IMG/VR virus record: IMGVR_UViG_3300042559_001610
Location: 1-59,156 of that record
Reading direction: 5' to 3' (one strand)
Source: a virus
Taxonomy: Duplodnaviria; Caudoviricetes
DNA: 59,156 bases
The position numbers and the translations under genes were made by a program. The notes beneath the pieces were generated by a model. The model had not been told where the DNA came from. It saw nothing but the letters and a program-made list of their open reading frames with translations, and did not search any database. Of this stretch, positions 15,654-50,911 are shown piece after piece. Positions within the stretch are counted from its first letter, which is position 1. Every line of letters begins with the position of its first letter.

Positions 15654-15935
15654 ATGAAAGATATTAGCAAATTCTCCTGGGCAGAAATGACATCCAACGA
15701 GTCAGGTAAGACATCAGCGAGCGGAACAATAGGGGTTATTATTTCCCTTGTTGGAGCTCTTGGGTTTTTACTTGGAATAATTGATAAAATGTTTCTTGAC
15801 GAGTCTGTCGAAATTTTAAATCAATCGATCTTCGTAATTGGGATTGGAGTAGGACTGCTAGGTTTTAGGAAGGGTAAAGATCCAAGGTCAACTGATAAGA
15901 CTGAAGAACCTAAGGAAGAACCTACTGAGGTTTAA
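15654..15935 (+). CDS. Small membrane protein (2 TM, holin-like); the only convincing plus-strand gene
   Basis: Two hydrophobic helices and a charged C-terminus; fills the gap between minus-strand genes. Confidence 0.65.
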   Translation: MKDISKFSWAEMTSNESGKTSASGTIGVIISLVGALGFLLGIIDKMFLDESVEILNQSIFVIGIGVGLLGFRKGKDPRSTDKTEEPKEEPTEV

Positions 15936-35924: not shown

Positions 35925-36055
35925 TAGTCAGGACAGGACTCGAACCTGCAAGCCCTTATTTATTATAGTGATTCTATAAGGCCTCTCTCACTCGGGGAGT
36001 GCGTTTACCACGATACGTTCGCTCACCACTACTAATATCTTTCCGCCACCTGACT
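35925..36055 (-). ncRNA. AGTCAGG-family tRNA-like RNA (D-loop insertion)
   Basis: Acceptor AGTCAGG/CCTGACT-A, T arm GCAGG TTCGAGT CCTGT, non-canonical interior. Confidence 0.7.
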
Positions 36056-36135
36056 ATGTTGCTCGTCTTTCCGAGCTGTCAGCTATTTAGTGTACGTTTT
36101 TGAGGTCGTTTAGCATAGCTGCCGTTCTTTCCTCG

Positions 36136-36249
36136 TAGTCAGGACAGGATTCGAACCTGCACGTAGTGCTAATCTCTACACAATCTCCACCTTAGCTGGG
36201 ACCGATCTCGTAAGTACCTCTTGTGCGTCTACCATTCCGCCACCTGACT
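36136..36249 (-). ncRNA. AGTCAGG-family tRNA-like RNA (expanded anticodon domain)
   Basis: Leu-type D arm GCGGAATGGTAGACGC, intact T arm, no 7-nt anticodon loop. Confidence 0.7.
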
Positions 36250-36323
36250 ATGTTGCTGTCTTTCCAGCAGTCAACCACCTTATCTCATATTGGAGTAATC
36301 ACCTCAAGTTAAGCAGGATTTTG

Positions 36324-36414
36324 TAGTCAGGACAGGACTCGAACCTGTCATCCGTTCTATCACCGTTTCTAGAGGGATTCGAACCCCGATAGATAGGACT
36401 GCCATCACCTGACT
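36324..36414 (-). ncRNA. AGTCAGG-family tRNA-like RNA with two TTCGA loops
   Basis: GGGG TTCGAAT CCCT plus ACAGG TTCGAGT CCTGT. Confidence 0.65.
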
Positions 36415-36593
36415 ATATTTTAATATCCGTAATCTTGTTCTCCACACATGCAATAATCAGCATAAGTAGATTGATAGATTTTACTACCGCAACTGGGGCA
36501 AATCCCACAGTATTGGTCTGACCTTTCATTCCATTCTTCTAATGGAGATTTATATTCCTCTTCGTCGTAGTCTTCGTCTTCCATTTTATTATT

Positions 36594-36748
36594 TTAATCT
36601 TCTAGATCAAATTTATTATTGTCTCTACGTTGAGAAGAAGTAAAATAAGTTAGCCCTTTAATTCCTTTGCCAACCCACTTCATAAAGTATGCACCTCTAC
36701 CCCAATGTAGTCTTTTATCAGATTTTCTTTTTTTGTTCTCAGATGCCA
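36594..36748 (-). CDS. Small basic hypothetical protein (start MASENKK)
   Basis: The upstream in-frame extension in the track overlaps a tRNA-like gene. Confidence 0.45.
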
Positions 36749-36765
36749 TAATTTTATTTCTTTTG

Positions 36766-36912
36766 TAACCGGGCCAGGATTCGAACCTGGTTGAACTCAC
36801 TCTAGAGCTTATTTACTACATATCTTTCGATCTGCAGCTGAGTTCTCATCTCCTCGAGGACGTCTCCCCTTACAGACTGACTCTGTAGCGTATACCCTTC
36901 CGCCTCCCGGTT
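36766..36912 (-). ncRNA. tRNA-like RNA with very large variable region
   Basis: AACCGGG/CCCGGTT-A acceptor, D arm, CCAGG TTCGAAT CCTGG. Confidence 0.65.
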
Positions 36913-37114
36913 ATGCTTTCTTTCTCACAGTTAAAAGATGATATTGGTGACAATGAGTGCATTTGTAAGCAACCAATTTAGTTCCCAATTTCGGATCTTT
37001 TTCGTTAACTATTTTAGCTGCACTTATTGCTGCCTTGTCATCCGGATAAGCTTTTTTAGCAAGCCCATTTCTAGAAATACAAGTCCATTTTCCTTTATCA
37101 GTACATTTAACCAT
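36911..37114 (-). CDS. Small zinc-ribbon-like protein
   Basis: AYKCTHCHQYHL. Confidence 0.6.
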   Translation of the reverse strand: MVKCTDKGKWTCISRNGLAKKAYPDDKAAISAAKIVNEKDPKLGTKLVAYKCTHCHQYHLLTVRKKA

Positions 37115-37139
37115 TTTATTTATCTAAATATACGGTTAG

Positions 37140-37224
37140 TAGTCAGGGAAGGAATCGAACCTCCAACGCAAAACCCGTCTTAACGTGGGTGAACTGCCAT
37201 TTCTCCATTATATGCCACCTGACT
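37140..37224 (-). ncRNA. AGTCAGG-family tRNA-like RNA
   Basis: Acceptor and T arm conserved. Confidence 0.65.
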
Positions 37225-37371
37225 AAATTTAAGAACAAGGCATATCGGTCGTTCCCTCTATATTGACTAACCCCTGCCATATTCTTTGCCCCGCTAAAGG
37301 CATACCTTTTGAGATGTTGGTCTGAGATTGAATTGGCTATTACGTAATTTACCTCATCAATTTATTCTTAG

Positions 37372-37476
37372 TAGTCAGGGCAGGAATCGAACCTGCGAGT
37401 GCTTTGCCATAAAGAGTGCCATTAGCTGTTAATCTCAACCTTGGGAGGTGCCACGTTACCACTACGCCACCTGACT
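37372..37476 (-). ncRNA. AGTCAGG-family tRNA-like RNA
   Basis: Acceptor, D arm and T arm conserved; aberrant anticodon domain. Confidence 0.65.
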
Positions 37477-37622
37477 ATATTTGACCACTGGTGGGATTTG
37501 AACCCCGAAGACCTTACGTATCGGTCACCCTCCTGTTCGTCCGTTCCAAACGTAACTTACATCAGTGATTTTTAATCAATAGGGGGACTACGAATCCCTA
37601 GAACAGGTACTCCTATTGAAGT

Positions 37623-37702
37623 TGGTAGTCAGTGCAGGATTCGAACCTACTTGTAGGATTTTCCGCCCTACTTTTCCAGGTGTCTTGTACTTCGACCTGA
37701 CT
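37623..37702 (-). ncRNA. AGTCAGG-family tRNA-like RNA with encoded CCA
   Basis: AGTCAGG...GTAGG TTCGAAT CCTGC ACTGACT A CCA. Confidence 0.6.
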
Positions 37703-37904
37703 ATATTTAAAAAATCCGAGGGGGCCTCACCGTCCCTCTATGTGGCTGAGTTAAACTCTTCTCTCAAGAGGAGATACCATCATGTGCCGGCCTATTACTT
37801 GTTTACACTACCGGATTCTTTTTGTCTTTTACTATTTCAAATAACTTTTTGTTTCGATTAAATATACGGTCGATACCGAGATTTAATTCTGATCTGGACC
37901 ACAT

Positions 37905-38550
37905 TTATTGTAATTCCATTTCTTTTAATTCATAGACTACAATTTCGCAATCAATTTCTCCAAAATCTTTGTTTGTTGGATTTGGAGGTGTTTTCCATCC
38001 CTTATGGGTGTCAAACAATTGATTACCCATTTCCGGTGTTATCCTTTCTAAAACCCCCTTTTCTTTCCAAACTTTAATACCCGCTATTTCAAGTTTTATT
38101 CTAAGGAATTTACCAGTAGGAATATGTCTTATTTTATACAATTTACTCATATTGATGACTGTTGTCTTTAATGTATTCAAATGCTGCTGAATAAGCTTCT
38201 TGTGGTGAATTAAATTCCCCTCCAAATCCGCCATATTTATGCCCTTTTAATTGTAATAATCTGATGTTAAATTTCCAATAAGTGGATCCTTCTTCTCTGT
38301 CCACACAAACCCAAATTCCATGGTTAACTCTTAACCATTCAACTACTTGCCATTGTTCAGGTACAGGAATCCATTTATCATCTGGAAATACTTCTTCTGA
38401 AAAATCACTTTCATGACATCTTCCTTGTATATCTTTATCATAATAATCGTAATAACTTGCAAAGGCCTGAAATATTTTATGATAGTTAAATCCTTTTTCT
38501 TTAAGCCATTTAGCTTGTTCAAAGGTTACATACTTTGGTTTTATTTCCAT
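37905..38550 (-). CDS. Two hypothetical phage proteins (about 37905-38150; 38143-38550)
   Basis: ORF track; VTFEQAKWLKEKGF phage-type motif. Confidence 0.6.
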
Positions 38551-38588
38551 ATATTAGAATATACGGTCGGGGATTAGGATCCCCAGCA

Positions 38589-38662
38589 GGGTGAATACTG
38601 GGAATCGAACCCAGATTACTGGCACCACAAACCAGTGTCTTGACCGTTAGACGATACTCACC
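38589..38662 (-). tRNA. tRNA-His(GTG) with G-1
   Basis: Cloverleaf, loop TTGTGGT, C73. Confidence 0.9.
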
Positions 38663-38676
38663 ATATTTATTTTTTG

Positions 38677-38747
38677 AACCCCCGGCAGGACTCGAACCCG
38701 CATCAGACGATCCGTATTCGCCCATTCTTCCGTTGAACTACAGGGGC
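38677..38747 (-). tRNA. tRNA-Arg(ACG)
   Basis: Cloverleaf, loop ATACGGA. Confidence 0.85.
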
Positions 38748-38754
38748 AGTTCGA

Positions 38755-38967
38755 TTAGACTATCCATCTAATCAAAAGCTTTGCTGGCATATGAAGCAGA
38801 AAGTCCGAATCTCCCATATCAGAAACTGGGATCTCGAATCTAACCTCATGCTCGTAGTCATCCACATCTACTACAACAGCGTAGTAAGCAGTTCCCTTTC
38901 GGATCATCTGGAAGTTTGCTTCCGGATTCTGTTTATACAGAGCTTTCTTTATTTCATTTTTTTCCAT
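38755..38967 (-). CDS. Hypothetical protein (start MEKNEIKK)
   Basis: The track's upstream extension overlaps tRNA-Trp. Confidence 0.6.
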   Translation of the reverse strand: MEKNEIKKALYKQNPEANFQMIRKGTAYYAVVVDVDDYEHEVRFEIPVSDMGDSDFLLHMPAKLLIRWIV

Positions 38968-38984
38968 AGTTTCTTCTTTAGCAG

Positions 38985-39055
38985 CACGAGCGGAGGGACT
39001 CGAACCCCCATCAACGGTTTTGGAGACCGGTATGCTACCATTGCACCACACTCGT
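38985..39055 (-). tRNA. tRNA-Trp(CCA)
   Basis: Loop CTCCAAA, G73. Confidence 0.9.
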
Positions 39056-39064
39056 GTATATTTG

Positions 39065-39140
39065 AGGTCAAACTCAGAATCGAACTGAGATTAAGTAGAT
39101 TTTGCAGACCTACCCCTATACCAGTATTGGGTATTTGACC
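39065..39140 (-). tRNA. tRNA-Cys(GCA)
   Basis: Loop CTGCAAA, U73. Confidence 0.85.
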
Positions 39141-39152
39141 ATAGCAGTGGAT

Positions 39153-39374
39153 TTACTTCCACTGTGTTTTTCTGTTGTGTTTCCAGGTCCTGTACATTCT
39201 CATCTTGTAAGACTCGAGTCTTTTTCCTGGATTCTTAAATCCTCTTCTCCAAGAGGGATATAGGTTTAACCCATCGTCCCAATAAGGAGGGTAATTTTCT
39301 TCTAGCCAAAGAATTCTATATTCTCTGGAAGTTTTTGCTTCATCTAAGAAGCTGCGTTTTCTGTTTTTTGACAT
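39153..39374 (-). CDS. Small basic hypothetical protein
   Basis: Ends RTWKHNRKTQWK. Confidence 0.6.
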   Translation of the reverse strand: MSKNRKRSFLDEAKTSREYRILWLEENYPPYWDDGLNLYPSWRRGFKNPGKRLESYKMRMYRTWKHNRKTQWK

Positions 39375-39431
39375 GATCTATTAGAGTTACCTAATAGAAG
39401 TCCATTTCTTTTTTCATATTTGAATATACGG

Positions 39432-39520
39432 TGGCGGAGAGCTGAGGTGTCGATCCCCATACATTTTTCAGTACCCACAGTTTTCAAGACTGCGACTCAG
39501 GCCGCTGAGTTTAACTCTCC
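39432..39520 (-). tRNA. tRNA-Ser(TGA)
   Basis: Loop CTTGAAA, long variable arm, GCCA end. Confidence 0.85.
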
Positions 39521-39528
39521 ATTTTTTG

Positions 39529-39600
39529 CAGACCAGGTAGGTTTCGAACCCACAGCCTCAGGGATTGGAATCCTGCGCTCTACCGTTGAGCTACTGGCCT
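39529..39600 (-). tRNA. tRNA-Trp(CCA), second copy
   Basis: Loop TTCCAAT, G73. Confidence 0.85.
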
Positions 39601-39607
39601 ATTTTTG

Positions 39608-39690
39608 TGGGTAGGGAGGGACTCGAACCCCCAAGGCCCGAAGGCGGCAGAGTTACAGTCTGCTGAGCCAACCAATTGCTCAACCTACCC
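39608..39690 (-). tRNA. tRNA-Tyr(GTA)
   Basis: Loop CTGTAAC, long variable arm. Confidence 0.9.
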
Positions 39691-39742
39691 ATGGTGGCTA
39701 TCTAAACTCATATAGAGAACTTCGCCGATTAGTTTTTTTTAG

Positions 39743-39828
39743 TAGCTCCACCCGGACTCGAACCGGGATTCTACTTCTCGTCTCCACTTTGTAAGAGTGG
39801 GATGTTTATCCAGTTACACCATAGAGCT
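39743..39828 (-). tRNA. tRNA-Val(TAC), enlarged variable loop
   Basis: CCACT CTTACAA AGTGG. Confidence 0.8.
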
Positions 39829-39836
39829 ATTTTTTG

Positions 39837-39913
39837 TGACCCCGGTGGGAATCGAACCCACATTTACACGAGTTAAAAGCTCGTTCCTATGGCCAGTATA
39901 CGGGTACGAGGTC
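39837..39913 (-). tRNA. tRNA-Lys(TTT)
   Basis: ACGAG CTTTTAA CTCGT. Confidence 0.85.
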
Positions 39914-39919
39914 ATTTTG

Positions 39920-39991
39920 CGGACCCTCCCCGGATCGAACGGGGGCTACCAGGGCTTCACTCTGGCGCTCTACCATCTGAGCTAAGGGTCC
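39920..39991 (-). tRNA. tRNA-Phe(GAA), atypical loop
   Basis: Loop GTGAAGC. Confidence 0.75.
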
Positions 39992-40018
39992 ATTTTTTCT
40001 AGTATGTCAAATAACTTT

Positions 40019-40094
40019 TGGTTGTCTGGGAAAGACTCGAACTTTCAACTTTCTCCGTATCAGGGAGATGCTCTAACCATTGAACTACCAGACA
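40019..40094 (-). tRNA. tRNA-Ile(GAT)
   Basis: TCTCC CTGATAC GGAGA, CCA encoded. Confidence 0.9.
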
Positions 40095-40096
40095 AT

Positions 40097-41062
40097 TTAT
40101 TTTTTTCTATATTTACGAGAACAAGAATTATTACAAAAAGTGTTTATTCTTTTACATTTGGACCCACAATATTTACAAGTCCCTGAATATAAAGAATTAT
40201 TTTTATCCTCGTATAGCTTTATAAAGTCGTTTCCATATTTAGTTTTAACATATTCTAATATAGGTTTCATTTCCCTTTTATAAAAAACTATAACGTCAGG
40301 GTTTTCTTTATGTTTTTGTTCCCATTCTTTTGTTTTAAATCCTTTTATTTCTACAATCCCCTCCTGGGTTACAAAGTCTGGCAAATATTTTCTAGTTTTC
40401 CCTTCCAATGTATATTCTCTCCATTCGGTGTTTCTTTCTATTTTTTCCCCCATATCTTTTTTATAAATAACAAAAGCTAACTCCCAACTACTGTCACAGA
40501 ATATCCCTTTATACCATCCTTTCTCCCCTCTTCCAGACCCTTCTCTTTTTCCGCCAGATACTTTTTTAAAGCATTCCCCGTGATATTTTCTATCTGGATA
40601 TGTACTAATTATATTTTCATTACAATGTAAACATTTTGCTTCATATCTTTGGGCTCTAAGAGGTTTTTTTGCATTTTTTGCTGCTTCTATAACCTTTGGA
40701 TTTCCTTTTAAACCTTTTGATATATTTTCTCTCCTTTTTTCCAGATTAGCATTAGCTGCATATTTATTAGCACAATTTCTTCCGCAAAAGTATTTTTCTT
40801 TCTTCGGGGATTTCCTGTTATATTCTAAAACACTAAATCCAATCTTACAGGTAAAACAATTAACATCAAACTCTTTATATTTTAATTTATTTTCTTTTTT
40901 TACTTTTTCTATCCCTTCTCGAGCTTTTTCGCTTTTTGATAGAGAATTTCTTATTTTATCCCTATGCTCTTGCGTTATTTTTCTTCCTTTTTGAGAACAA
41001 CTTCTAGAGCAATGCATTCCATTTTTTTCATGGGGATTTCCACATTTTTTACAGTTTTTCAT
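40097..41062 (-). CDS. Putative homing endonuclease (Zn fingers, NUMOD-like, PD-(D/E)XK) inside the tRNA array
   Basis: CSRSC motifs, DSSWEL, YLPDF....VEIKG. Confidence 0.75.
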   Translation of the reverse strand: MKNCKKCGNPHEKNGMHCSRSCSQKGRKITQEHRDKIRNSLSKSEKAREGIEKVKKENKLKYKEFDVNCFTCKIGFSVLEYNRKSPKKEKYFCGRNCANKYAANANLEKRRENISKGLKGNPKVIEAAKNAKKPLRAQRYEAKCLHCNENIISTYPDRKYHGECFKKVSGGKREGSGRGEKGWYKGIFCDSSWELAFVIYKKDMGEKIERNTEWREYTLEGKTRKYLPDFVTQEGIVEIKGFKTKEWEQKHKENPDVIVFYKREMKPILEYVKTKYGNDFIKLYEDKNNSLYSGTCKYCGSKCKRINTFCNNSCSRKYRKK

Positions 41063-41102
41063 ACTCTATATATCTTTCGAACCCTAATTTTTTTAATGAT
41101 TG

Positions 41103-41176
41103 TATTACCGCACAGAATCGAACTGAAATTTCCGCAGTGAAGTTGCAGTGTCCTAAACCATTTAGACGACGGTAAC
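41103..41176 (-). tRNA. tRNA-Glu(TTC), atypical loop
   Basis: CTGCA ACTTCAC TGCGG; Glu-type D arm GTCTAAATGGTTTAGGAC. Confidence 0.75.
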
Positions 41177-41227
41177 ATTTTTTTCTAATATTTCAAATAA
41201 CTATTTTTTTTATTTTTAGGGACAAAC

Positions 41228-41256
41228 AAAAAAGGAACCTTTTGAGGGGTTCCTTT
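41228..41256 (-). terminator. Attenuator terminator of tRNA operon 1
   Basis: AAAGGAACC-CCTCAAAA-GGTTCCTTT-TTT. Confidence 0.85.
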
Positions 41257-41281
41257 AAAATATCTGTATAAAAATTTCTTC

Positions 41282-41410
41282 TTATTCAAAAATCTTATGA
41301 AACCCATTTAGACGCTTAAAGCAAATCCAATAGACGATCACCTCAACTTCATGTACGAAGCTTGAGAACGATTTCTCTGATTTCTTTAATATGTTAATTA
41401 AGTTTCTCAT
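41282..41410 (-). CDS. Leader peptide (42 aa) of tRNA operon 1
   Basis: MRNLINILKKSEKSFSSFVHEVEVIVYWICFKRLNGFHKIFE*; GATATATA motif at 41425-41432; terminator just downstream. Confidence 0.8.
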   Translation of the reverse strand: MRNLINILKKSEKSFSSFVHEVEVIVYWICFKRLNGFHKIFE

Positions 41411-41578
41411 TTCTTTGATTGGTTTATATATCTTATTAGTTGTGTAAATATACGGTAGTTATACTGTTTTTTGGTAAAAAATTTCAAATATTTTCAATTA
41501 TTTTCAAACTTTTTTGATTTTTTTATTTGTTTTATTGAATATACGGTGATTATACACAAGATTTAGAAAAAGTTTCAA

Positions 41579-44500
41579 TTATTTTCTTATCTCCCCTAGC
41601 TTTTGAATTACATCTCCAAAGACTCTAGCCGTTTCGGATCTGTCTACAAATCTGTTATAATCTTTGGGCTTTACGTGAATAGCATAACGATCTGATGCAA
41701 ACACGGAGTTTCCATCAATTCCGGAACTATAATTATCAGGGATTCCAAAATCTTTTGGCCTTTTAAAAGTGTATGCTTGCCCATATGGTATAATGTCCCC
41801 TTTATAGAATAGGAAATCAAAAAGATCCGAAGACATGGCTGGATATTCTTTCCCAGTTATTTCTGTTCCAAATCCAACTCCATTAGGTCCATGTCCAAAT
41901 CCAAAATCTTCTCCAAAGGACCATTTTGTCTTGTGACCTATGTCATGTAGGGTGTCCTGAAGATCTCTAAGTTCTTCTTCTGAGTAGTCTTCAAATACTT
42001 TGATGTGCTTCATTTTTTTAGTTCGTTATAAAATTTCAGAAGAGATTCTGTGTAAGTTTCTTCGTGAGGACCATTTTTAAAAAATTGGTTTGCATAGTTT
42101 GTATTTCCGTCAAAACCATCCCCAGTGATGAGTAGTTCTGGTGATCCCCAGCCTGCGTATGTCGGAATTGTTAAATCAATTTTAACTCCGTTGCTCAGGA
42201 TCAAATGAAGATCTGCAAGAAAGTGAGATCCCATCTCACCATCTACGGAAAGAAGGGCAACGTCACTCTTGTAATTTCTGGCAAATTCTTCTTCTCTATC
42301 TCGTTCCTTTTTATACATTGCATCAGAACGAACATTAAATTTTAAATCGTGATGCCCTATTCCTCTAAGGTCTCCAATTAGATCCCCGAGTTCTTCTTCT
42401 GAGTAGTCTTCAAAAAGTTTAATGTGCTTCATGATTTAAGTTCTGATAAGTATTTTTCAATTTTTAGATATCTTGATTTAGCATTACTCGCATAAAATGC
42501 TATTCTAAATAGGTTTGTTCCAAATAAAGTTATAGCAGCTTTAATTTTTGGATCGGTAAATTGATAATAATTTGCATCTGGATTTGGTTTGGCTATTATC
42601 CCTTTATCCTCTAACTTTTTAATTCCTAATTTAGTGAGATATAAGGGATATCCCTGGCTAGCACCATCATGAAGAGCCGTTCCATATCCAAAATCCCTGC
42701 CCTTTTGAAGGAGTTTGTACTCATGACCAATCCCCTCTAGATCAACTTGGAGTGCCCTAAGTTCTTCGTCTGAGTAGTCTTCAAAAAGTCTAACGTGTTT
42801 CATTTTCTAATAGAAGATAGATAGTCAAAAACCTCCTGAGCAAAATCTTTCTTTATTTTTAGTCTTTCTTCAGTAGAAAGTCTGACGTGGGGTTTTACTT
42901 CAAGAGAATAGTCTCCTTCTGAGGGATCAAAAATACCCTGTTGAAAATAACGATAGACTGAATAGCTTGGGTATTTCAAAGAAAGTCCTACAGAGTCATC
43001 AAAATAAATAGCTCCTGGGGTGTGTGAGTCTCTTTTCATGAGGCCCTTTTTAAGCATATCCTCCACAACTGATTTTTTTATCACCAGATCTTCATATCCT
43101 GTATTTGGTCTTTTCATAAACCACTTCCTTTGCTGCTGTATGTCCTTTCCAAATCCAAAGTCTTCTCCAGGAATAAGCCTGTATGTGTGTCCAATGGTTT
43201 CTAAGTCCCCTAAAAGGCCCTCTATTTCTTCGTCTGAGTAGTCTTCAAATAGTTTGATGTGTTTCATCATATTAGTTTATCATATAGTGAGAGAGCGGAT
43301 AAAATCCATCCTCCTGGATATTCAAACATTTCATCTCCTACGGTTTCTTTGATTTCTTTTCCTCCAGTAAAGATGGTGATGTGTCCTAGATATCTATTAA
43401 AGGAATTATTTCCAGTATTTTTGAATTCAAATTCAAATTTGTCTCCGTTGGATAAATCCAGATTTAGCTGGATATCTTCTGGGTCGTTTTTATTGATTAT
43501 GTGTCCTTCAACTCTAACAACATGAACACCAGGATTTTCTTCAGAAACCCAATTTTCGCATTCATCTTTTTCAACTTTAGGATTTCCCCATGATTTGGAC
43601 AAATCAACATTAAAAATTAGATTGCTGTGACCAACACCTTTAAGATCTCCCATGAGATCTCTAAGCTCTTCTTCTGAGTAGGACTCTTTAAGACCTAGCT
43701 TTGACTTTATTCTTTGCAGAAAGGTTGGGTTTTTACTTCTGGATTTGTTAGCCAAATGACGTTCGTATCTCGTCAGAGCAGCCAAGGTGTGTGGATATTC
43801 CACGATTCCCATGTTATAGTTTTCGTTGTCATATGGGGAGTCGTCTTCATCATCTTCTAAATTGAGTATGGGATTTCCATTGACAGAAAAAGAGACCCCT
43901 TCGTAATTGTCTGTCACTGTTTCGATGACATCACCATTGGAAAGGTTTAGGGCAACAAGAACCTTATTGTCCGGGAGAATTTTGAGAGACCCAGATTTAA
44001 CTTTAATTTCCCCTCCTGGGGTTGGAAAAGACCAGGAATTAACGATGTCCCTCTCTTCTTGTTTATCCTTCTCCTTCATCCCAAATAAATGACCATAGTC
44101 TATATCCATACGAACTTCAGACTGCCCAACAGATCTCAGATCTCCAATGAGGTCCCTAAGTTCTTCATCCGTGTACTCCTCAAATAGTTTAATGTGCTTC
44201 ATCTTCTAAAAATGCTTCTCCTTTAGATTTGATTCCGTCGTAGAGATCAAGACAAGCTCTAACTACACTTCCAGATTCTAATAGCTCCAAATATTTTTCT
44301 TTAACCTCATAGTATCTGTCGTTGAGAGTAAAAGTCCCCTCGTCCTTATTGTCAGATCCTTTGTTTCCAGGCCCAGATTGGTAATAAAAGTAGAGATTAG
44401 CACGGTCACCGTTGGAAAAAACAAAGTCTAGATCAGTAGTTTCCTCGCTGATCTCTCCAGAAACTGATTTCAAGTAGGTACCTGGGCTAGATTTGGATTT

Positions 44501-45374
44501 CCAAAACTCTGCTTGCTTTGCCTCTTCTTCTGCCAATTCTGGATAGTCTATGTGATCTATATCCACCTCGACAACATTATGTCCAATCCCATAAAGGTCC
44601 TTCATCAGAGAATCTAAATCTTCTTCTGAGTACTCCTCAAAAATTCGGATGTGCTTCATTTCATTTAATCTAATATATCAATCGGGCTTCCCTGAAGAGA
44701 TCCATATCCCTTCATTTTTTTTGCTATTTCAACTAGAAAACCCCCTACTTCCTTTTTTCCCTTGAACTTTTTAATTTCCTCTGGACTCATTCCCAGTATT
44801 TTCCCGAGCTTTCCAATAACCGGGTAGAGCATGGCTGGGTTTAACCTGTGAACTTTATTTCCATATCTAGTCCCTATCTTTAGCGGAGATTCTGCAAGTC
44901 CTACTGAGGATAGATCATCTATTAGATCCCCTATCTCTTCTTCTGTGTAGTCTTCGAATAGTTTAATGTGCTTCATTACCTCTTGTTTTTATTGTAGTAG
45001 TCAGACATTTTGAGGTAGAGCTTGTAGAGTGGCTCCTGTTCTATTTTAGAGGTCGACCATCTTTCGTACGTTCCCATTCTCATGGGGCCACTCAGATTGT
45101 ATCTAGCGTGGTCTTCCACTGAGTTTTCATAAAGGTACCAGATCATGTCGTAGTAGTCTCCCTTCGTGTCTATATCAAAGTCTTCTGGGTTGGTGTAGTA
45201 GTCGTATAGGTACTCCGCATAGTCCTCAGCAGACATTCCCCCACCAAATTGGTTTATGAACTTTAGCATGTCCTCTTCTTCTTCAGTCAGAGCATGCCCA
45301 ACCGATCTTAGGTCCCCGATCAGGTCCTTTAGTTCCTCGTCTGAATAGTCTTCAAATAGTTTAATGTGTTTCAT
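41579..45374 (-). CDS. Tandem array of eight MKHIKLFEDYSEEEL..L..DL..IGH proteins (putative capsid-targeted internal proteins)
   Basis: 41579-42013, 42010-42432, 42429-42803, 42800-43270, 43267-44202, 44189-44659, 44665-44976 and 44976-45374 share a ~27 aa N-terminus; the bodies are mostly unrelated. Confidence 0.85.
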
Positions 45375-45385
45375 TTAATAATCTT

Positions 45386-45520
45386 TTATTTAGGCATTTC
45401 TCTCACACAATTCGGAACTACTCTGCCATTCTTCTTTTTGGTTCCAATTTGCTTATATCCCTTCCAGCATGGATTTTTTTCCTCCAGCACAAATTCGTTA
45501 TATTCTCTAAGAAATTTCAT
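45386..45520 (-). CDS. 44-aa PCWKGY-motif phage protein (below the track cutoff)
   Basis: MKFLREYNEFVLEEKNPCWKGYKQIGTKKKNGRVVPNCVREMPK, downstream of GATATATA at 45525-45532. Confidence 0.7.
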   Translation of the reverse strand: MKFLREYNEFVLEEKNPCWKGYKQIGTKKKNGRVVPNCVREMPK

Positions 45521-45544
45521 AATCTATATATCCTTTTATTCCAC

Positions 45545-46045
45545 TTACTTGGCGGAATAAATTTCAACTACAGATCCATCAGATCGAAAAATTCTAACGT
45601 CTGGTGATGTCCAACCATATTCGTCTGCCAAATACTGTGCATAAGACTCTGGAGTTGCAAAGACCACATCCCAATTTCTGTCCTTCCATCCTCCTTTAGA
45701 CGCTGCTACCGATGCTCCGTACTTCTCAGCAACCGAAGCTGCTTCTTTCTCAGTCATTGAACCGTAAGAACGAGGAAAGGACACCTCATGACCGCTGTAC
45801 CATCGGTCTCCGCAGCAAGGACAATCCATTCCCTCGTCTACTCCATTGAAGTAAACACCCATAGACTCGGCTTTAAGTTCTGCTTCTGCTTCGGAAGCAG
45901 CTTCTATTAGAAGTCTATGACAAACTTGAGAATTTGTAACGAAACTTCCACCTGTGTTGTTCTGGCTGAACTCGTAAAATTTTTGTAGTTTAGATTCTTT
46001 GACTGTTGATTTTATTTCTTTCATATTGTTTAAATTCACGTTCAT
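45545..46045 (-). CDS. Conserved phage hypothetical protein
   Basis: QNNTGG...YFNGV...DCPCCGDRW. Confidence 0.7.
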   Translation of the reverse strand: MNVNLNNMKEIKSTVKESKLQKFYEFSQNNTGGSFVTNSQVCHRLLIEAASEAEAELKAESMGVYFNGVDEGMDCPCCGDRWYSGHEVSFPRSYGSMTEKEAASVAEKYGASVAASKGGWKDRNWDVVFATPESYAQYLADEYGWTSPDVRIFRSDGSVVEIYSAK

Positions 46046-46214
46046 AAAAACCGGACCAGTTTCTGAAACGTCTTCCAGTCTTTGTCCGGGGTGTCAATAT
46101 AGGTTATGCCTTGGGCTATTCCCTTGTTTGACTTGAAAACACCTCAGGAGTGAGCAGATCTAACGGTATGCTTCGAGGCAATTTGTTCCTTTGAACTATT
46201 AGAAAAACCAGGTG

Positions 46215-46288
46215 TGTCGAGAACAGGAGTTGAACCTGTGACCTTGAGGTTATGACTCTCACGCTACTACCAACTGAGCTACCTCGAC
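46215..46288 (-). tRNA. tRNA-Met(CAT)
   Basis: Loop GTCATAA. Confidence 0.75.
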
Positions 46289-46350
46289 ATGGAGCCGGCA
46301 CCAGGATTCACTGGTGGATCGCCCGGCATTTATTTCCCAATTAGGGGTCG

Positions 46351-46423
46351 AGCGAGAAACCAGGTACGATCTGGCAACCTCCGACTTGGAAGGACGGCGC
46401 TCTACCAATTGAGCTACTCTCGC
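46351..46423 (-). tRNA. tRNA-Gly(TCC)
   Basis: Loop CTTCCAA, U73, atypical T loop ATCGTAC. Confidence 0.8.
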
Positions 46424-46537
46424 ATGGCGGACAAGCGAGTAATTTAATACTTCCTCTCATCCATAGTCACATCTTAGATTTAACTCCGCTTGTGCTAAGC
46501 TCGGACTGTATACCGGCATTTGTTCTGTTAAGAACCG

Positions 46538-46612
46538 TGGAGCAAGTGATAGGAATCGAACCTACGTCTCAGGCTTGGAAGGCTAGAGTAATAACCACTA
46601 TACGACACTTGC
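46538..46612 (-). tRNA. tRNA-Gly(TCC), second copy
   Basis: Loop CTTCCAA, TCCA end. Confidence 0.85.
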
Positions 46613-46624
46613 TTGTAAAAAATA

Positions 46625-46764
46625 CAGGATTGGGGTTTTTTTCCTGCTCTAACCAACTGAGCTACTCTGAACGATGCCACTTAAGGCTGTGTTCAAAGGA
46701 AGGACTCGAACCTCCGACCCGGGCATTATAAGTGCATTTTTTTAATTTTTGCTGTAACAATCCT
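46625..46764 (-). ncRNA. Y-RNA-like RNA 1 (stem-ACAGCAA scaffold plus permuted tRNA, TAT loop)
   Basis: AGGATTG/CAATCCT closing stem; T arm precedes D arm. Confidence 0.8.
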
Positions 46765-46775
46765 TTAATAAGTTT

Positions 46776-46904
46776 CAGGTTTCAGGTTTTTTGACCAGTG
46801 CGTCTACCAATTTCGCCATCGGGGATTTCTCCCTCTGTGGGGCTCGAACCCACACATCCTTTCGGATATCGGTTTTGATTATTTTTTCTTGCTGTAAGAA
46901 ACCT
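46776..46904 (-). ncRNA. Y-RNA-like RNA 2 (permuted Leu-like tRNA)
   Basis: AGGTTTC/GAAACCT stem, ACAGCAA, variable arm, T arm, GAAA-closed acceptor, Leu-type D arm. Confidence 0.75.
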
Positions 46905-46955
46905 TTTATTATCTTAGATCAGTAAGTGAAAATAGTTTCATTTACTGATCTTTTG

Positions 46956-47031
46956 TCTCCGCGGAGGGCTTCGAACCCCCAGTAATGTCCTCGTCCCAAA
47001 CGAGGCGACTTCCCAATTAGTCTACACGGAG
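46956..47031 (-). tRNA. tRNA-Pro(TGG)
   Basis: CCTCG TTTGGGA CGAGG. Confidence 0.85.
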
Positions 47032-47120
47032 AAATTATGGGTGGGATCAGAGGCCTTCTGCCCACCGGGACCTTCATTTTGAGATTGCTCTCAGGGAACG
47101 AAGACACTTTTTTAAAAATG

Positions 47121-47246
47121 CGGGATCGCATGTTTTTGGCCTGCTGCTCTACCAACTGAGCTACCGGGGATGCCGAAGCATTGTCCCCAGGTGAGACTCG
47201 AACTCACGACCCGCGGGTTGGATTTTTTCGTTGCTGTAACGATCCC
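47121..47246 (-). ncRNA. Y-RNA-like RNA 3 (permuted tRNA)
   Basis: GGGATCG/CGATCCC stem, ACAGCAA, T arm, acceptor closed by a TTCG hairpin, then D arm. Confidence 0.8.
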
Positions 47247-47256
47247 AATAAATTTA

Positions 47257-47314
47257 CAGGATGCTTGTTTTTTCAATTTAAAAGTTTGATTTTTTGATTT
47301 GCTGTATGCATCCT
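47257..47314 (-). ncRNA. Y-RNA-like RNA 4 (scaffold plus Lys-type anticodon stem-loop)
   Basis: AGGATGC..ACAGCAA..TCAAA CTTTTAA ATTGA..GCATCCT. Confidence 0.7.
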
Positions 47315-47324
47315 TTAATAAGTT

Positions 47325-47386
47325 CAGGTTAGTTTTTGATTTTACATCCAATTGTATAATTTTTTTAATTTTGCTGGAACTAACCT
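47325..47386 (-). ncRNA. Y-RNA-like RNA 5 (minimal)
   Basis: AGGTTAG..CCAGCAA..TACA ATTGGA TGTA..CTAACCT. Confidence 0.65.
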
Positions 47387-47393
47387 TTTTTTG

Positions 47394-47467
47394 CAGTTCG
47401 TACGGGATTCGAACCCGTGATCTCCACGATTGACAGTCGGGTATCTTAACCGCTAGACCAACGAACT
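47394..47467 (-). tRNA. tRNA-Asp(GTC)
   Basis: Loop CTGTCAA, G73. Confidence 0.85.
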
Positions 47468-47630
47468 ATGTTTAAAAAAGAAAATAATGAGGGAGTACCC
47501 GTCTCGCTCCAATCTTAATTGCTTCTTCAGTTTTAATGAGGCCTCGGCAAAGGGTGGTGCACTTCTTAAATTCCGTTCCTGGTTTGTCGACAACCGAAAA
47601 ACAGAGAAGGCCATTATTTTCTTTTATCTT

Positions 47631-48539
47631 TTATTGTTTCCAAGATTTTCTTTTGAAACAATTAATTTCATAAAATTCTGGGAGAAATCTTTTCATCCAT
47701 CCATTTATTTTTTGATCTGATAATCCAACTATTTTAGAAGCTTGAGATACCCATCCAAAGGAAGAAAAATCTATGCCTGATGAAATTAATTCTTCTGCAA
47801 TTCTTTGATTCTTTTCGTTGTATTGTATTGCATTTAAAGCTCTCTTATCTACTTTTGGGGTTTTTAATTCTTTGGATCTTATTAATCTTTCTTCTAATTT
47901 TTTAGTTTCGGAATTTGAAAGGAAGGAAATTAAGTCCTCGATTTTAAAGCTCTCTGTCTCGTCATAAGCTATTCTATAAACTCTCCATCCTGATTTTTCT
48001 AAATTATGATCCCTGGTTATGTCATGATCTATTCTTTTTTTATTTATAAAATGACATTTTCCATCAAATTCAACTGCTACTTTTTCATTAATAAAAGCAA
48101 AATCAATAAAATATGGATAAACTGGATGTTGAAAGATAACATCATACTTTGAATAAATCTTATTCTCTTCAAATATATTGTGTAACCATTCCTCTCCGTA
48201 GGTCATTAACCCGTTTGCTACTTTACCCCAAGCCGTTTTTTGGAAATTGTTTTTATCCGAAAGATATTCGAATCTTTTTTTCCTCATTTTTTCCTTAGTT
48301 TCTTCTGAATATACTTTAGTATGACTGAGTGTTTTTAAACATTTTTTATCTCCACAAGTGGAATTAAATTTTATACCTCTTCTTAATTTTCTATTTTTTT
48401 CACAATATGGGCACTTAGGAATTTTCATATTTTCATATTTTTGATAATATTCAAGAAGACTGATTCCATATTTTTTTAAACTTGTCGATAGACCTAATTT
48501 ATTTTTACAAATTGTTCCATCTATTTTAGATATAATCAT
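47631..48539 (-). CDS. Putative homing endonuclease (DUF559/Vsr-like)
   Basis: YFIDFA....VAVEFDG..H......D..RD..LEKSGWRVYRI. Confidence 0.8.
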   Translation of the reverse strand: MIISKIDGTICKNKLGLSTSLKKYGISLLEYYQKYENMKIPKCPYCEKNRKLRRGIKFNSTCGDKKCLKTLSHTKVYSEETKEKMRKKRFEYLSDKNNFQKTAWGKVANGLMTYGEEWLHNIFEENKIYSKYDVIFQHPVYPYFIDFAFINEKVAVEFDGKCHFINKKRIDHDITRDHNLEKSGWRVYRIAYDETESFKIEDLISFLSNSETKKLEERLIRSKELKTPKVDKRALNAIQYNEKNQRIAEELISSGIDFSSFGWVSQASKIVGLSDQKINGWMKRFLPEFYEINCFKRKSWKQ

Positions 48540-48596
48540 AATCTATATATCCAAATTAAGTTCGAATAATTTGTCGTTTTGCCATTTTTTAAGTTG

Positions 48597-48679
48597 TTAT
48601 CCCGTCAGGAGTCGAACCTGAATACAGCTTTCGCTTCCAGAGCCAAAATCTGGGGTGTTGCCAGTTACACTACAGGATA
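48597..48679 (-). tRNA. tRNA-Gln(TTG), long variable arm
   Basis: CCAGA TTTTGGC TCTGG, U1-A72. Confidence 0.8.
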
Positions 48680-48691
48680 ATTTATTTGGGG

Positions 48692-48765
48692 TGGGCCATA
48701 CAGGGCTCGAACCTGTGACCTTGACATTATGAGTGTCCCGCTCTGACCAACTGAGCTAAAGGCCC
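48692..48765 (-). tRNA. tRNA-Ile2/Met(CAT), probably Ile2 reading ATA
   Basis: GGGCC acceptor typical of Ile2, loop CTCATAA. Confidence 0.8.
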
Positions 48766-48810
48766 GATTTTTCTAATATGTCAAATAACTCTTTGTGAAG
48801 TAACATACGG

Positions 48811-48899
48811 TGGCAGAAGATACAGGACTCGAACCTGTACACCGAATTAACGGTGAGCTAGTTAGCAACCAGTTGCAGTACCATTATGCTTAATCTTCT
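48811..48899 (-). tRNA. tRNA-Ser(GCT)
   Basis: Loop TTGCTAA, long arm, GCCA. Confidence 0.85.
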
Positions 48900-48904
48900 A
48901 ATTG

Positions 48905-48980
48905 TGGAGCTAGTGGGAATCAAACCCACCACAGTCTGATTGCAAATCAGACTCGCCGAAGTCTTGGTACATGTAACCCC
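48905..48980 (-). tRNA. tRNA-Ala(TGC)
   Basis: G3:U70, loop TTTGCAA. Confidence 0.85.
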
Positions 48981-48989
48981 ATTTTTATT

Positions 48990-49077
48990 TGGCGGAGAGG
49001 ACAGGATTCGAACCTGCGGTACCTTTCGGTACACATGCTTTCCAAGCATGCTCCTTAAACCACTCGGACACCTCTCC
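48990..49077 (-). tRNA. tRNA-Ser(GGA)
   Basis: Canonical; loop TTGGAAA, GCCA. Confidence 0.95.
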
Positions 49078-49082
49078 AGGTG

Positions 49083-49166
49083 AGCCAGATGTAGGATTCG
49101 AACCTACGGTGTACTTTCGTATCCGGTTTACAAAACCGGCGCTATCGACCTCTAAGCGAATCTGGC
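49083..49166 (-). tRNA. tRNA-Thr(TGT), long variable arm
   Basis: CCGGT TTTGTAA ACCGG. Confidence 0.85.
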
Positions 49167-49239
49167 GTTTTTGACAAGCTTATAACTGGTCCTGTCCAGT
49201 ACTTGTCGTGTATGCCACTTTCCAGGATGAGATCAAAAA

Positions 49240-49413
49240 TTACTTACAGTCTGCACTGTCAGAACAAACTGATGTGCTGTCTGGGCAAACACAAGCAGTG
49301 TCTTTGTTACAAGTGCTGTCGCATTTACTAGCGCAATTGCTAGATTGATTTGATCCGTTAGAGCAAGAGCCCAATGCTAATGCTAAAGTTAAAGCTAAGA
49401 TTAAGTTTTTCAT
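49240..49413 (-). CDS. 57-aa Cys-rich lipoprotein (below the track cutoff)
   Basis: MKNLILALTLALALGSCSNGSNQSSNCASKCDSTCNKDTACVCPDSTSVCSDSADCK; lipobox LGSC. Confidence 0.7.
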   Translation of the reverse strand: MKNLILALTLALALGSCSNGSNQSSNCASKCDSTCNKDTACVCPDSTSVCSDSADCK

Positions 49414-49434
49414 TTTTATTTTTAAGTTGTTTTG

Positions 49435-49506
49435 CTGGGATGGAGAATTTCGAAATCTCGACCTACGGATTAACAGTCCGCCGCTCTGCCTCTGAGCTAC
49501 ATCCCA
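49435..49506 (-). tRNA. tRNA-Asn(GTT)
   Basis: GCGGA CTGTTAA TCCGT. Confidence 0.9.
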
Positions 49507-49516
49507 ATGTAATTTG

Positions 49517-49608
49517 CTGACTAAAAGGGATTCGAACCCTAAACTCCCGCCCTATTGTCTTCCGTTAAGAATATCGTCGGGCAGTGTGCTCCAATACACC
49601 ATAGCCAA
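49517..49608 (-). ncRNA. tRNA-like RNA with expanded anticodon domain
   Basis: D arm GTGT..ACAC, T arm TAGGG TTCGAAT CCCTT. Confidence 0.55.
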
Positions 49609-49657
49609 TCGAGAGTTTCGAACCTCTCAGTTTTAGGTTAATTACTCCTAAAATTTG

Positions 49658-49731
49658 TTGCGGCTCTCAGGATTCGAACCTGGTGTCTCTGGGTTATGAG
49701 CCCAGTATGTAAGCCATTTCACTCAGCCGCA
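49658..49731 (-). tRNA. Initiator tRNA-fMet(CAT)
   Basis: CTGGG CTCATAA CCCAG (three G-C pairs). Confidence 0.85.
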
Positions 49732-49741
49732 ATTTATTTAG

Positions 49742-49848
49742 CCCCTCCAGCTGGATTCGAACCAGCTTACTCGTGGATGAATTCGTCGGGGGATACCGAA
49801 AGGGCGATTCATCCGTCTCTGTGTTTTACCTCATAGAACTACAGAGGG
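49742..49848 (-). ncRNA. tRNA-like RNA with a long hairpin replacing the anticodon arm
   Basis: CCCTCTG/TGGAGGG acceptor, T arm, GGATGAAT/ATTCATCC stem. Confidence 0.6.
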
Positions 49849-49854
49849 ATTTTG

Positions 49855-49965
49855 TACAAAAGGCAGGACTTGCACCTGCATGGTTCGGTTACCCTGTACC
49901 GACCCCTGACGGGGTCACGTCTGTCTATCATCCTTTTTCGAATATGGATGCTTCCGCCACTCTTG
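49855..49965 (-). ncRNA. tRNA-like RNA with D-loop insertion
   Basis: ACAAGAG/CTTTTGT acceptor, GCAGG TGCAAGT CCTGC, GACCCC GTCA GGGGTC. Confidence 0.55.
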
Positions 49966-50102
49966 TATTTTTGGCTTTTCTAATATGTCAAAGAACCAAT
50001 AAAGATTTTTTATTGTCTTTATTGTACCTAAGTATACGGTCTTGTTTCGTAGAACCTAAGAGGAAATTAAAAATTTTTTAATTATTTTTTAATTTCTTTT
50101 TT

Positions 50103-50552
50103 TGGTGGAGCAGGGGGGAATCGAACCCCCGTCTTGTTCAGCTTGTTCAAGGACTCGTTCACATGCTTAGATCAGTTTTTCTAAACTGTCAAAATTTGTC
50201 ACCTGGATTTTTTGACTGATTCCTTGGTGACCGTTTTATCAGCGAACCTTCCGATAGTGTCGATCTGAATGGGTATTGGATTTCTCCTCAAGGTTTCACT
50301 CGGTTTCCACTTGGCGGTACTACAAACCTTTTTCCCGCATGTGAGATTTTCTGTTCCTGGGTAATCTCAAACCCGATGAGAATTAAGCTGCAATAGCTAA
50401 TTCAGCTCCTACTAAAGACATTGCATCTTCAAAGGAGAAAGTTGACTTTTCGCCGTTTACATTTTATATAGGTGATTAAAGAGTTTCCAATACTAACTCT
50501 GCATGCATCATCACGAAAATCAAGAACTGCCAATCGATGCCTGGTCTGCCCC
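50103..50552 (-). ncRNA. ssrA: tmRNA
   Basis: 5' GGGGCAG, 3' T arm plus CTGCTCC-ACCA (G3:U70); tag ORF 50383-50454 ending AIAA*. Confidence 0.92.
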
Positions 50553-50614
50553 ATAAATTAAAGAACTGTTTATCTAATATACGACTATAGATACGGACCT
50601 GTAGAAAATTTCAT

Positions 50615-50647
50615 AAAAAAACCTGAACTTTTTAAAGGTTCAGGCTT
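50615..50647 (-). terminator. Attenuator terminator of tmRNA/tRNA operon 2
   Basis: AAGCCTGAAC-CTTTAAAAA-GTTCAGGTTT-TTTT. Confidence 0.85.
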
Positions 50648-50673
50648 AGTAGAGGATCTTCTATATTTCTATA

Positions 50674-50769
50674 TCACGATATTCGAACTAAGCCTGCAGC
50701 ATCCGGGTTGCCGTCTCCTGTAGTAGAGGCTCCCATCTGATTTATATTTGCTTGACTTATCGAAATCAT
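50674..50769 (-). CDS. Leader peptide (31 aa) of tmRNA/tRNA operon 2
   Basis: MISISQANINQMGASTTGDGNPDAAGLVRIS*; GATATATA at 50792-50799; perfect 10-bp antiterminator 50687-50696/50641-50650. Confidence 0.85.
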   Translation of the reverse strand: MISISQANINQMGASTTGDGNPDAAGLVRIS

Positions 50770-50911
50770 TTTTTAGTTTTTTATTGTTTGTTATATATCA
50801 ATTTGTTTTTAAAGTTTCACATTTTTTTCCACTATAATTGAAAAAAATTGAATTATTTTCCATTTTTTTCCACTAAGGCCACATTTTTTGGAAAAATTTT
50901 CCACTATAGGC

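Follow-up and report, generated by a model that had tools for sequence, protein, structure and literature searches.

In the trp, his, thr, leu, ilv and phe leaders of enterobacteria, a short open reading frame (ORF) carrying cognate regulatory codons lies between the promoter and the genes. A terminator stands before the first gene, an antiterminator makes use of the 5′ arm of that terminator, and stalling of the ribosome leads to read-through. Here, a candidate for such an element is described on a 59,156-nucleotide stretch of DNA from a virus of the Caudoviricetes (IMG/VR record IMGVR_UViG_3300042559_001610, positions 1 to 59,156; the whole stretch is called the window), in which the minus-strand segment 41432-41221 is probably a ribosome-mediated transcription attenuator of a cluster of phage transfer RNA (tRNA) genes.

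Attenuation is multivalent in the case of ilvGMEDA, where several amino acids are sensed together, and the pheM leader of pheST places an aminoacyl-tRNA synthetase under the control of ribosome stalling. The T-box, which has no ORF, binds uncharged tRNA directly and controls synthetase and amino acid genes. Large phages (T4, T5, KVP40-like and huge phages) carry tRNA arrays on one strand together with small ORFs and homing-endonuclease-like genes. We know of no tRNA gene that is subject to leader-peptide attenuation and, to our knowledge, the control of phage tRNA genes is largely unknown. The general principle of leader-peptide attenuation is set out in a published account (PMC1183508). Searches of the full-text literature outside the subscription journals brought up no account of tRNA genes or phage tRNA arrays being controlled by a leader peptide or an attenuator.

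The phage locus resembles the amino acid operon leaders in having a leader ORF with cognate codons, a terminator, and an antiterminator whose upstream strand lies near the end of the ORF. It differs from them in its phage setting and in its targets, which are tRNA genes where the classical operons encode enzymes, so that the signal sensed would be the amount of tRNA as much as its charging. In addition, amino acid leaders contain repeats of one to three amino acids, whereas the phage run spans 11 specificities, each present once to four times, and modelling predicts read-through of the phage leader when no ribosome is present. With ilvGMEDA the locus would share a response to several specificities and with pheM a target in the translation apparatus; in those systems, however, there are three specificities at most, the genes are cellular, the products are proteins, and a tRNA gene is never the regulated target. 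A choice between terminator and antiterminator in a leader that reports on tRNA is common to the T-box and the proposed phage element, but the phage leader would be read out through translation of an ORF, and no T-box riboswitch matched in Rfam at E ≤ 1 across positions 36000-51000. One-strand arrays with interspersed small ORFs link the window to the tRNA clusters of other large phages, and the proposed leader-peptide control is what the window adds. Rfam gave no match within 41228-41432 at E ≤ 1, and no Pfam family matched the leader peptide at E ≤ 10, which places the leader outside the described leader families, though it apparently works like one.

Codon match between the leader ORF and its tRNA cluster

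ARAGORN identified 24 tRNA genes in two clusters on the window, to which Rfam added a transfer-messenger RNA (tmRNA), a long-arm tRNA (39521-39435) and a number of insert-bearing tRNA-like units. Cluster 1 (41176-38589, minus strand) comprises tRNAs for Glu, Ile, Phe, Lys, Val(tac), Tyr, Trp, Ser(tga), Cys, Trp, Arg(acg) and His, or 11 specificities in all. The long-arm tRNA has the anticodon TGA and is thus a Ser tRNA; together with the ARAGORN set it gives exactly the 11 specificities that had been named in a preliminary description of the locus. The tRNA-like units at 37.7-36.0 kilobases (kb) were excluded from the cluster-1 specificity set, and so kept out of the regulated set, because their identity is ambiguous. 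No strong terminator-like site was found on the minus strand from 41231 to 38589, and the genes of cluster 1 are presumably co-transcribed. Cluster 2 (49731-46214) comprises three tRNAs with CAT anticodons, Asn, Thr, two Ser, Gln, Asp, Pro and two Gly; neither ARAGORN nor Rfam revealed a tRNA for Ala or Leu.

Upstream of cluster 1, the preliminary description had placed an ORF of 42 amino acids at 41410-41282, and the sequence bears out both its coordinates and its length. The ORF starts 13 nucleotides (nt) past a promoter-like motif and ends 106 nt before the gene for tRNA-Glu. As had been claimed, codons 9-33 are restricted to the 11 downstream specificities, being made up of 25 residues of Lys, Ser, Glu, Phe, Val, His, Ile, Tyr, Trp, Cys and Arg. 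Within this run Arg is encoded by CGT, Ser by TCA, TCG, TCA and one AGC, and all four Val codons are used. The first eight codons include some that do not match: Leu and Asn, as was also noticed at the outset, and an AGA codon for Arg.

The run of 25 is the longest in the contig that is composed of the cluster-1 set. The next longest is 15, a value reached both in the 11,953 amino acids of ORFs of at least 100 amino acids and among the other 237 of the 238 small ORFs compared (25-80 amino acids, six frames), and simulation of 200,000 peptides of the leader's length gave p ≤ 5e-6 for a run of 25. Over the whole peptide, 34 of 41 residues belong to the set against a background of 0.546, the frequency of the 11 amino acids across the long ORFs of the phage (binomial p = 1.3e-4). 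Neither the 198 small-ORF controls nor the 2,177 real-protein windows included one that reached this count. All 11 downstream specificities occur in the leader peptide; random peptides contain a mean of 8.6, with 3.5% reaching 11. Trp, Cys, His, Tyr and Arg are represented by one codon each in the matched peptide. Under strict wobble rules, 29 of the 41 leader codons can be read by the leader's own cluster 1 (background 0.418, p = 1.7e-4) and only 5 by cluster 2 (background 0.305, lower-tail p = 0.0057).

A second leader ORF of 31 codons (leader 2; 50769-50674, minus strand) stands before the tmRNA gene and cluster 2 and is enriched in cluster-2 specificities. It has the same architecture as the first leader and an unrelated sequence, just as the preliminary description had it. 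With the same wobble rules, 14 of 30 codons of leader 2 are readable by its own cluster and 4 of 30 by cluster 1, and the preference for the own over the other cluster is reciprocal between the two leaders (2 × 2 Fisher p = 1.2e-5). The tmRNA gene itself (50552-50103, minus strand; Rfam RF00023, 75 bits) was missed by ARAGORN in the window, and a promoter-like motif at 50583 lies between it and the leader-2 terminator. ARAGORN did detect tmRNAs in the relatives L006, L013 and L141. Since the tmRNA is the first gene past leader 2, stalling on that leader might also induce the rescue RNA.

A general preference for codons read by the phage tRNAs was considered as the cause of the match and was rejected, because each leader avoids the codons of the other cluster.

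Searches for relatives of the leader were negative throughout. The region 40900-41700 had no blastn match in phage records, the peptide had no tblastn match at E ≤ 1 among 50,697 phage records, and no homologue was present in a set of 5.8 billion proteins (23-74 residues). An ORF that lacks a homologue, lacks a Shine-Dalgarno sequence, is not represented in the protein database and lies in a strongly structured transcript might be untranslated, the segment being either a structured non-coding leader or the plain terminator of the upstream gene block. Shine-Dalgarno sequences are, however, absent from all genes of this phage, whose start contexts are A-rich, and a spacer would have no reason to hold an open frame with codons that match the downstream tRNAs. 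The upstream gene, moreover, ends at 41579, and two promoter-like motifs lie between that gene and the leader ORF. A lack of translation is, on this evidence, highly improbable.

Promoter-like motifs, terminator hairpin and alternative pairing

Two 9-base motifs are, from their distribution in the sequence, putative promoters. The first occurs 15 times in the window, always on the minus strand and against 0.36 occurrences expected from shuffles, and is typically found a few to ~ 30 nt ahead of start codons. The second is present in 15 copies on the coding strand, of which 14 are followed by an ATG after 0-22 nt and one has no ATG within ~ 50 nt. It precedes many real genes as well as both leader ORFs, at 13 nt and 21 nt before the start. 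In many instances this second motif is just 3 nt ahead of the ATG. The placing of the motifs suggests a phage-specific class of promoter with very short or absent 5′ leaders.

A terminator-like hairpin, recognized by pattern matching, is placed between the leader ORF and the first tRNA gene, with 25 nt separating the stop codon from its stem. The coding strand of the 59-kb window has 10 hairpins of this type in all. Just two of the 10 have an ORF of at least 25 codons immediately upstream, and these are precisely the two that stand before the tRNA and tmRNA clusters.

The leader transcript (41425-41222) has a minimum free energy (MFE) of -49.8 kcal/mol (z = -3.43), and none of 200 dinucleotide shuffles was as stable. 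In its MFE fold, codons 2-4 form a long-range helix with codons 35-38, next to which stand a middle hairpin, which includes the stop codon, and the terminator. When the 3′ arm of the terminator was omitted, 41305-41299 (region 2) paired with 41253-41247 (region 3), giving an antiterminator state of -22.9 kcal/mol (z = -3.82). The preliminary description had proposed that this segment could pair with the terminator 5′ arm, and that a stable alternative fold should exist; both were found in the fold lacking the 3′ arm, where the pairing closes the hairpin 41297-41257. Under a uniform definition of the arm, by which the 5′ arm was extended by the six bases that precede the stem and by two bases of the loop, the strongest duplex between ORF and arm reached -11.4 kcal/mol, compared with -6.7 ± 1.8 kcal/mol for 500 shuffles (p = 0.020), and fell 22 to 7 nt before the stop codon. 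In leader 2, a 10-pair antiterminator overlaps the 5′ arm of the terminator-like hairpin.

The influence of a translating ribosome was modelled on the transcript as far as the terminator loop, using a 30-nt footprint. The predicted pairing probability of the 5′ arm was ~ 0.75 with the ribosome at codons 1-31, 0.1-0.3 with the ribosome at codons 32-42, and 0.31 with the stop codon in the A site. As arm pairing drops at codon 32, the predicted switch point coincides with the end of the matching run at codon 33. The same drop was seen in 10 of 16 units from this and related phages.

A switch that is purely thermodynamic was also considered and set aside, the terminator being favoured at equilibrium at any ribosome position; for 14 of the 16 units the equilibrium model gave no switch. 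In classical attenuators, too, the terminator wins at equilibrium.

Recurrence in related jumbo phages

Distant relatives that carry tRNA arrays were reached through a conserved gene of 166 amino acids (46045-45545) located between clusters 1 and 2. The related loci were scanned with a rule that takes no account of composition: a perfect hairpin of at least six pairs, including at least three G-C pairs, followed by a T-rich tail; placement of the hairpin on the tRNA strand and no more than 300 nt upstream of a tRNA; and an ATG ORF of 12 or 15 to 70 codons ending no more than 75 nt from the hairpin. The scan returned 22 ORFs, 14 of which lie in units whose peptide tracks the downstream tRNAs, and eight of which show no match to them. 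Among the matching units are two homologous families, each present in several phages, and a 19-codon ORF in L021. At least six other unrelated units of small ORF and terminator were found before tRNA sub-arrays, and every one of them shows enrichment of the specificities that follow it.

Three further jumbo-phage records and a further stretch of the L044 record, three of the four being complete, were fetched after the pattern had been defined and served as a test set. In this case, six of the eight ORFs returned tracked the downstream tRNAs and two did not match them. Taking one representative each of eight mutually non-homologous units, the combined binomial probability was 1.4e-14; leaving out the two units of the window, the Fisher-combined p was 1.8e-11 for six non-homologous units, and the three units of a single test genome gave 7.9e-6. 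The run probability was ≤ 2e-4 in 14 of 16 tabulated units, homologues included, and 0.27 and 0.007 in the other two. Every downstream specificity was represented in nine of 14 units, the misses being Met (three times), Cys and Gln. All units have a common layout, in which a few unmatched codons are followed by an unbroken matched run and an unmatched tail. Leu codons illustrate the correspondence: there are none in the run of L066, where no Leu tRNA follows, and they are present in L043 and L108, where Leu tRNAs do.

These results bear on the proposal of an ordinary small phage gene or transcribed spacer that has a terminator of its own, the tRNAs being expressed from other promoters and the residue match being a coincidence. 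The ORF does have the promoter-like motif and start context of ordinary genes, promoter-like motifs are present within the cluster, there is no homologue to demonstrate conservation, and the very large scan behind the finding would be expected to yield rare coincidences somewhere. Coincidence is nevertheless at odds with the run probability of the leader, with the reciprocal match of a second ORF on the same contig, and with the prospective recurrence in the test set and in one genome of that set; nor were the homologues looked for in phage and metagenome protein sets found, which speaks against an ordinary protein. We regard this proposal as quite unlikely.

The position of the terminator and of its complement was also compared across units. 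The distance from stop codon to terminator stem was 18-36 nt in 17 of 17 units and, in 14 of the 17, the duplex between ORF and arm was better than 95% of shuffles and always fell within the last 45 nt of the ORF. In one homologous family, bases of region 2 change along with the terminator arm. One family member, L108, had no significant duplex. In one homologous leader family, 16 positions are invariant in six sequences and the order of the peptide is well conserved, and codons of identical residues are themselves identical in 59-89% of cases, compared with 45-62% in a neighbouring gene. Such conservation of peptide order and codons fits a constraint beyond composition, at the level of either the RNA or the peptide. 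No match to the leader family of the other phages was found in cultured phage records, and in the second leader family the aligned sequences diverged too far to serve in a scan of the collection. The cultured Vibrio phage nt-1 has a small ORF and a terminator before its tRNA array, and its match is uninformative because the downstream set covers at least 18 amino acids.

The ORF could be translated and matched to the tRNAs and yet act by another route, such as translation-dependent protection or processing of precursor tRNA, shielding from Rho, an effect on the timing of expression, or a role of the peptide itself. Both the conserved leader family and the failure of equilibrium folding to produce a switch would suit such a route. 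Against it stand the terminator found 18-36 nt past the stop codon in every unit, the placing of the best complement of the arm at the end of the ORF, and the covariation of region 2 with the arm, and the occurrence of the same design with unrelated peptides argues against a function of the peptide. Action by one of these other routes is therefore judged unlikely. Every computational test available, namely the match to the own cluster, the terminator and antiterminator, and the recurrence, supports the reading as a leader-peptide attenuator that the preliminary description had put forward. On balance, we lean towards the view that jumbo phages hold a general, undescribed class of multi-specificity leader-peptide attenuators, in which the codons of the ORF correspond exactly to the tRNAs that follow and the speed of the ribosome sets tRNA transcription.

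One further type of ORF was seen in the related phages. In L044 (1422-1478) and in L155, L157 and L158 (near 4100-5730), an ORF of 18-24 codons rich in Leu and Arg occupies another frame of a lipoprotein-like ORF of 54-59 codons, with a terminator and a group of Arg-Leu(-Leu) tRNAs immediately downstream. Leu and Arg together make up seven of the 17 residues of the L044 ORF, compared with a background of 0.124 (p = 0.0028). These ORFs may be further leaders that are masked by the longer overlapping frame.

Proposed mechanism and genomic setting

Several observations weigh against the reading of the locus as an attenuator. Seven of the 41 leader residues are unmatched, and the cluster-1 tRNAs cannot read one Ser (AGC) and one Arg (AGA) codon. 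Synonymous choice contributes little to the match, with 290 codons decodable against 279.6 expected over 15 units (z = 2.0), the Ser anticodon of the window being mis-set in that count. The leader itself has no homologue in the collections searched, and all of the comparative support is drawn from analogous units that are not homologous to it; of the 11 test loci with tRNA arrays, six yielded no unit. The antiterminator is short, comprising seven pairs, one of them G-U, that close a 41-nt hairpin, and the duplex with the bare arm reaches only -6.6 kcal/mol (p = 0.078). With the 3′ arm present, the terminator of the leader is favoured at equilibrium at every ribosome position, with a probability of 0.6-0.9. 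As the terminator wins at equilibrium, the choice must be kinetic and made before the 3′ arm is transcribed, and the switch needs an assumed kinetic trapping of the antiterminator. In six of the 16 units, arm pairing did not drop with the ribosome at the stop codon. In the model without a ribosome the arm is paired at 0.70, corresponding to read-through, where the full-length MFE fold instead has region 1 paired with region 2 and the terminator formed; by this model, read-through may be the default, with termination requiring completed translation. Finally, promoter-like motifs occur within the cluster, at 41074 (before an ORF of 321 amino acids), 39431, 38566, 37869 and 37135, and most of the tRNAs could be transcribed from them without any involvement of the leader.

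If the segment is an attenuator, it would be expected to work as follows. Transcription would begin at the promoter-like motifs just upstream, and a ribosome, presumably coupled to RNA polymerase, would translate the 42-codon leader as the polymerase advances, sampling all 11 downstream tRNA specificities at codons 9-33. Scarcity of any one of the 11 tRNAs, the presumed physiological signal, would stall the ribosome within the run and leave region 2 free to pair with the terminator 5′ arm as soon as this is made; the terminator would then be blocked, and transcription would read through into the tRNA-Glu gene and the rest of the cluster. Under fast decoding, the ribosome would arrive at codons 32-42 or at the stop codon and cover region 2, the terminator would form, and transcription would end before the tRNAs. 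The net effect would be negative feedback on tRNA supply, of benefit where host tRNAs are mismatched to phage codon usage, degraded, or cleaved during infection. The features concerned are collected in Table 1.

Table 1. Positions of the leader, its putative control regions and neighbouring features on the window.
Feature	Position	Strand	Remarks
Promoter-like 9-mer, copy 1 of two before the leader	41538..41546	-	Overlaps the best sigma-70-like match of the region
Promoter-like 9-mer, copy 2	41447..41455	-	Same motif as 41538..41546
Promoter-like 9-mer of the second type	41424..41432	-	13 nt ahead of the leader start codon
Leader ORF	41282..41410	-	42 codons and stop (41284-41282); ATG start; no Shine-Dalgarno sequence
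Region 1, codons 2-4	41399..41406	-	Pairs with region 2 in the full-leader MFE fold; putative role
Regulatory run, codons 9-33	41312..41386	-	Only the 11 cluster-1 amino acids, all 11 present
Region 2, codons 36-38	41299..41305	-	Upstream antiterminator strand; lies 14-20 nt ahead of the stop codon
Middle hairpin	41257..41297	-	Contains the stop codon; closed by pairing of regions 2 and 3
Region 3	41247..41253	-	Covers part of the 5′ arm of the terminator and two bases of its loop; pairs with region 2
Intrinsic-terminator-like hairpin and T-rich tail	41221..41256	-	Hairpin 41256-41231; 9 pairs, 8-nt loop, -11.0 kcal/mol
tRNA-Glu(ttc), first gene of cluster 1	41102..41176	-	ARAGORN, Rfam; 44 nt past the T-rich tail
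Remaining cluster-1 tRNAs, Ile to His	38589..40094	-	ARAGORN, Rfam; small ORFs interspersed
Sister element, leader-2 ORF and hairpin region	50769-50605	-	Terminator-like hairpin 50643-50623

The contig has a G+C content of 36.9%, carries nearly all of its genes on the minus strand and reads well with the standard bacterial code. The DNA of this uncultured phage was present in 23 lake-water metagenome runs. Its closest relatives, found through a Ro60-like gene, are fragments without the tRNA region that are estimated at 10-18% of their genomes, and more distant relatives are complete phage genomes of 283-430 kb; on account of these relatives, the contig is most likely a piece of a jumbo phage. 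A gene of 135 amino acids in cluster 1 led to the relative L141, which has a tmRNA and no tRNA arrays. L141 also has a tRNA with the anticodon tta (15706-15777), which would read the stop codon TAA.

Eight tandem paralogous genes (45374-41579, minus strand), which have their first 25 residues in common and little else, stand between the two tRNA clusters, which are contiguous in related phages. Neither the upstream gene of 144 amino acids nor a profile of the eight paralogues had relatives in IMG/VR. The regions 57203-53384 and 47214-46615 (minus strand) form an RNA-repair-like neighbourhood with an RNA ligase-like gene and a Ro60/TROVE-like gene of 480 amino acids (phrog_850). Two weak Rfam matches to Y-RNA-like (YrlA) RNAs, below the gathering score, fall within cluster 2.

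Further RNA-like features accompany the clusters. Downstream of cluster 1, at 37730-36030 (minus strand), there are about six tRNA-like units with inserts and an identical acceptor-stem sequence. Two of them score as tRNA in Rfam (42 and 38 bits), and the identities given by ARAGORN with and without introns conflict; these could be intron-bearing tRNAs or tRNA-like modules of other RNAs. Between a promoter-like motif and the first cluster-2 tRNA, a structured segment with a tRNA-like 3′ end (49990-49741, minus strand) includes a part that ARAGORN, with introns allowed, reports as a Pro tRNA with an insert, and a weak Rfam match to permuted tmRNA lies nearby. Cluster 2 also contains, between its Asn and Thr tRNAs, a 57-codon ORF (49413-49240, minus strand) that starts like a lipoprotein and is otherwise rich in Ser, Cys, Asn, Asp and Thr; it may be a gene or a further codon-matched element.

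If the locus functions as proposed, a textbook mechanism would have been put to a new use, the homeostasis of the decoding machinery, with a single leader integrating up to 11 or more tRNA specificities. Should the wider class be real, each tRNA sub-operon, and here the tmRNA gene too, would be led by an ORF that acts as a direct sensor of tRNA supply. The proposed reading would also account for the division of the arrays into blocks, provide a sequence rule by which the transcription units within phage tRNA arrays could be located and, in so compact a design, offer a synthetic sensor of tRNA availability that could be reused. Replacement tRNAs could be induced when those of the host are depleted, mismatched in codon usage, or cut by anticodon-nuclease defences, and the phage tRNAs, the tmRNA, the RNA-repair genes and the host defences that attack tRNA would be joined in a testable link.

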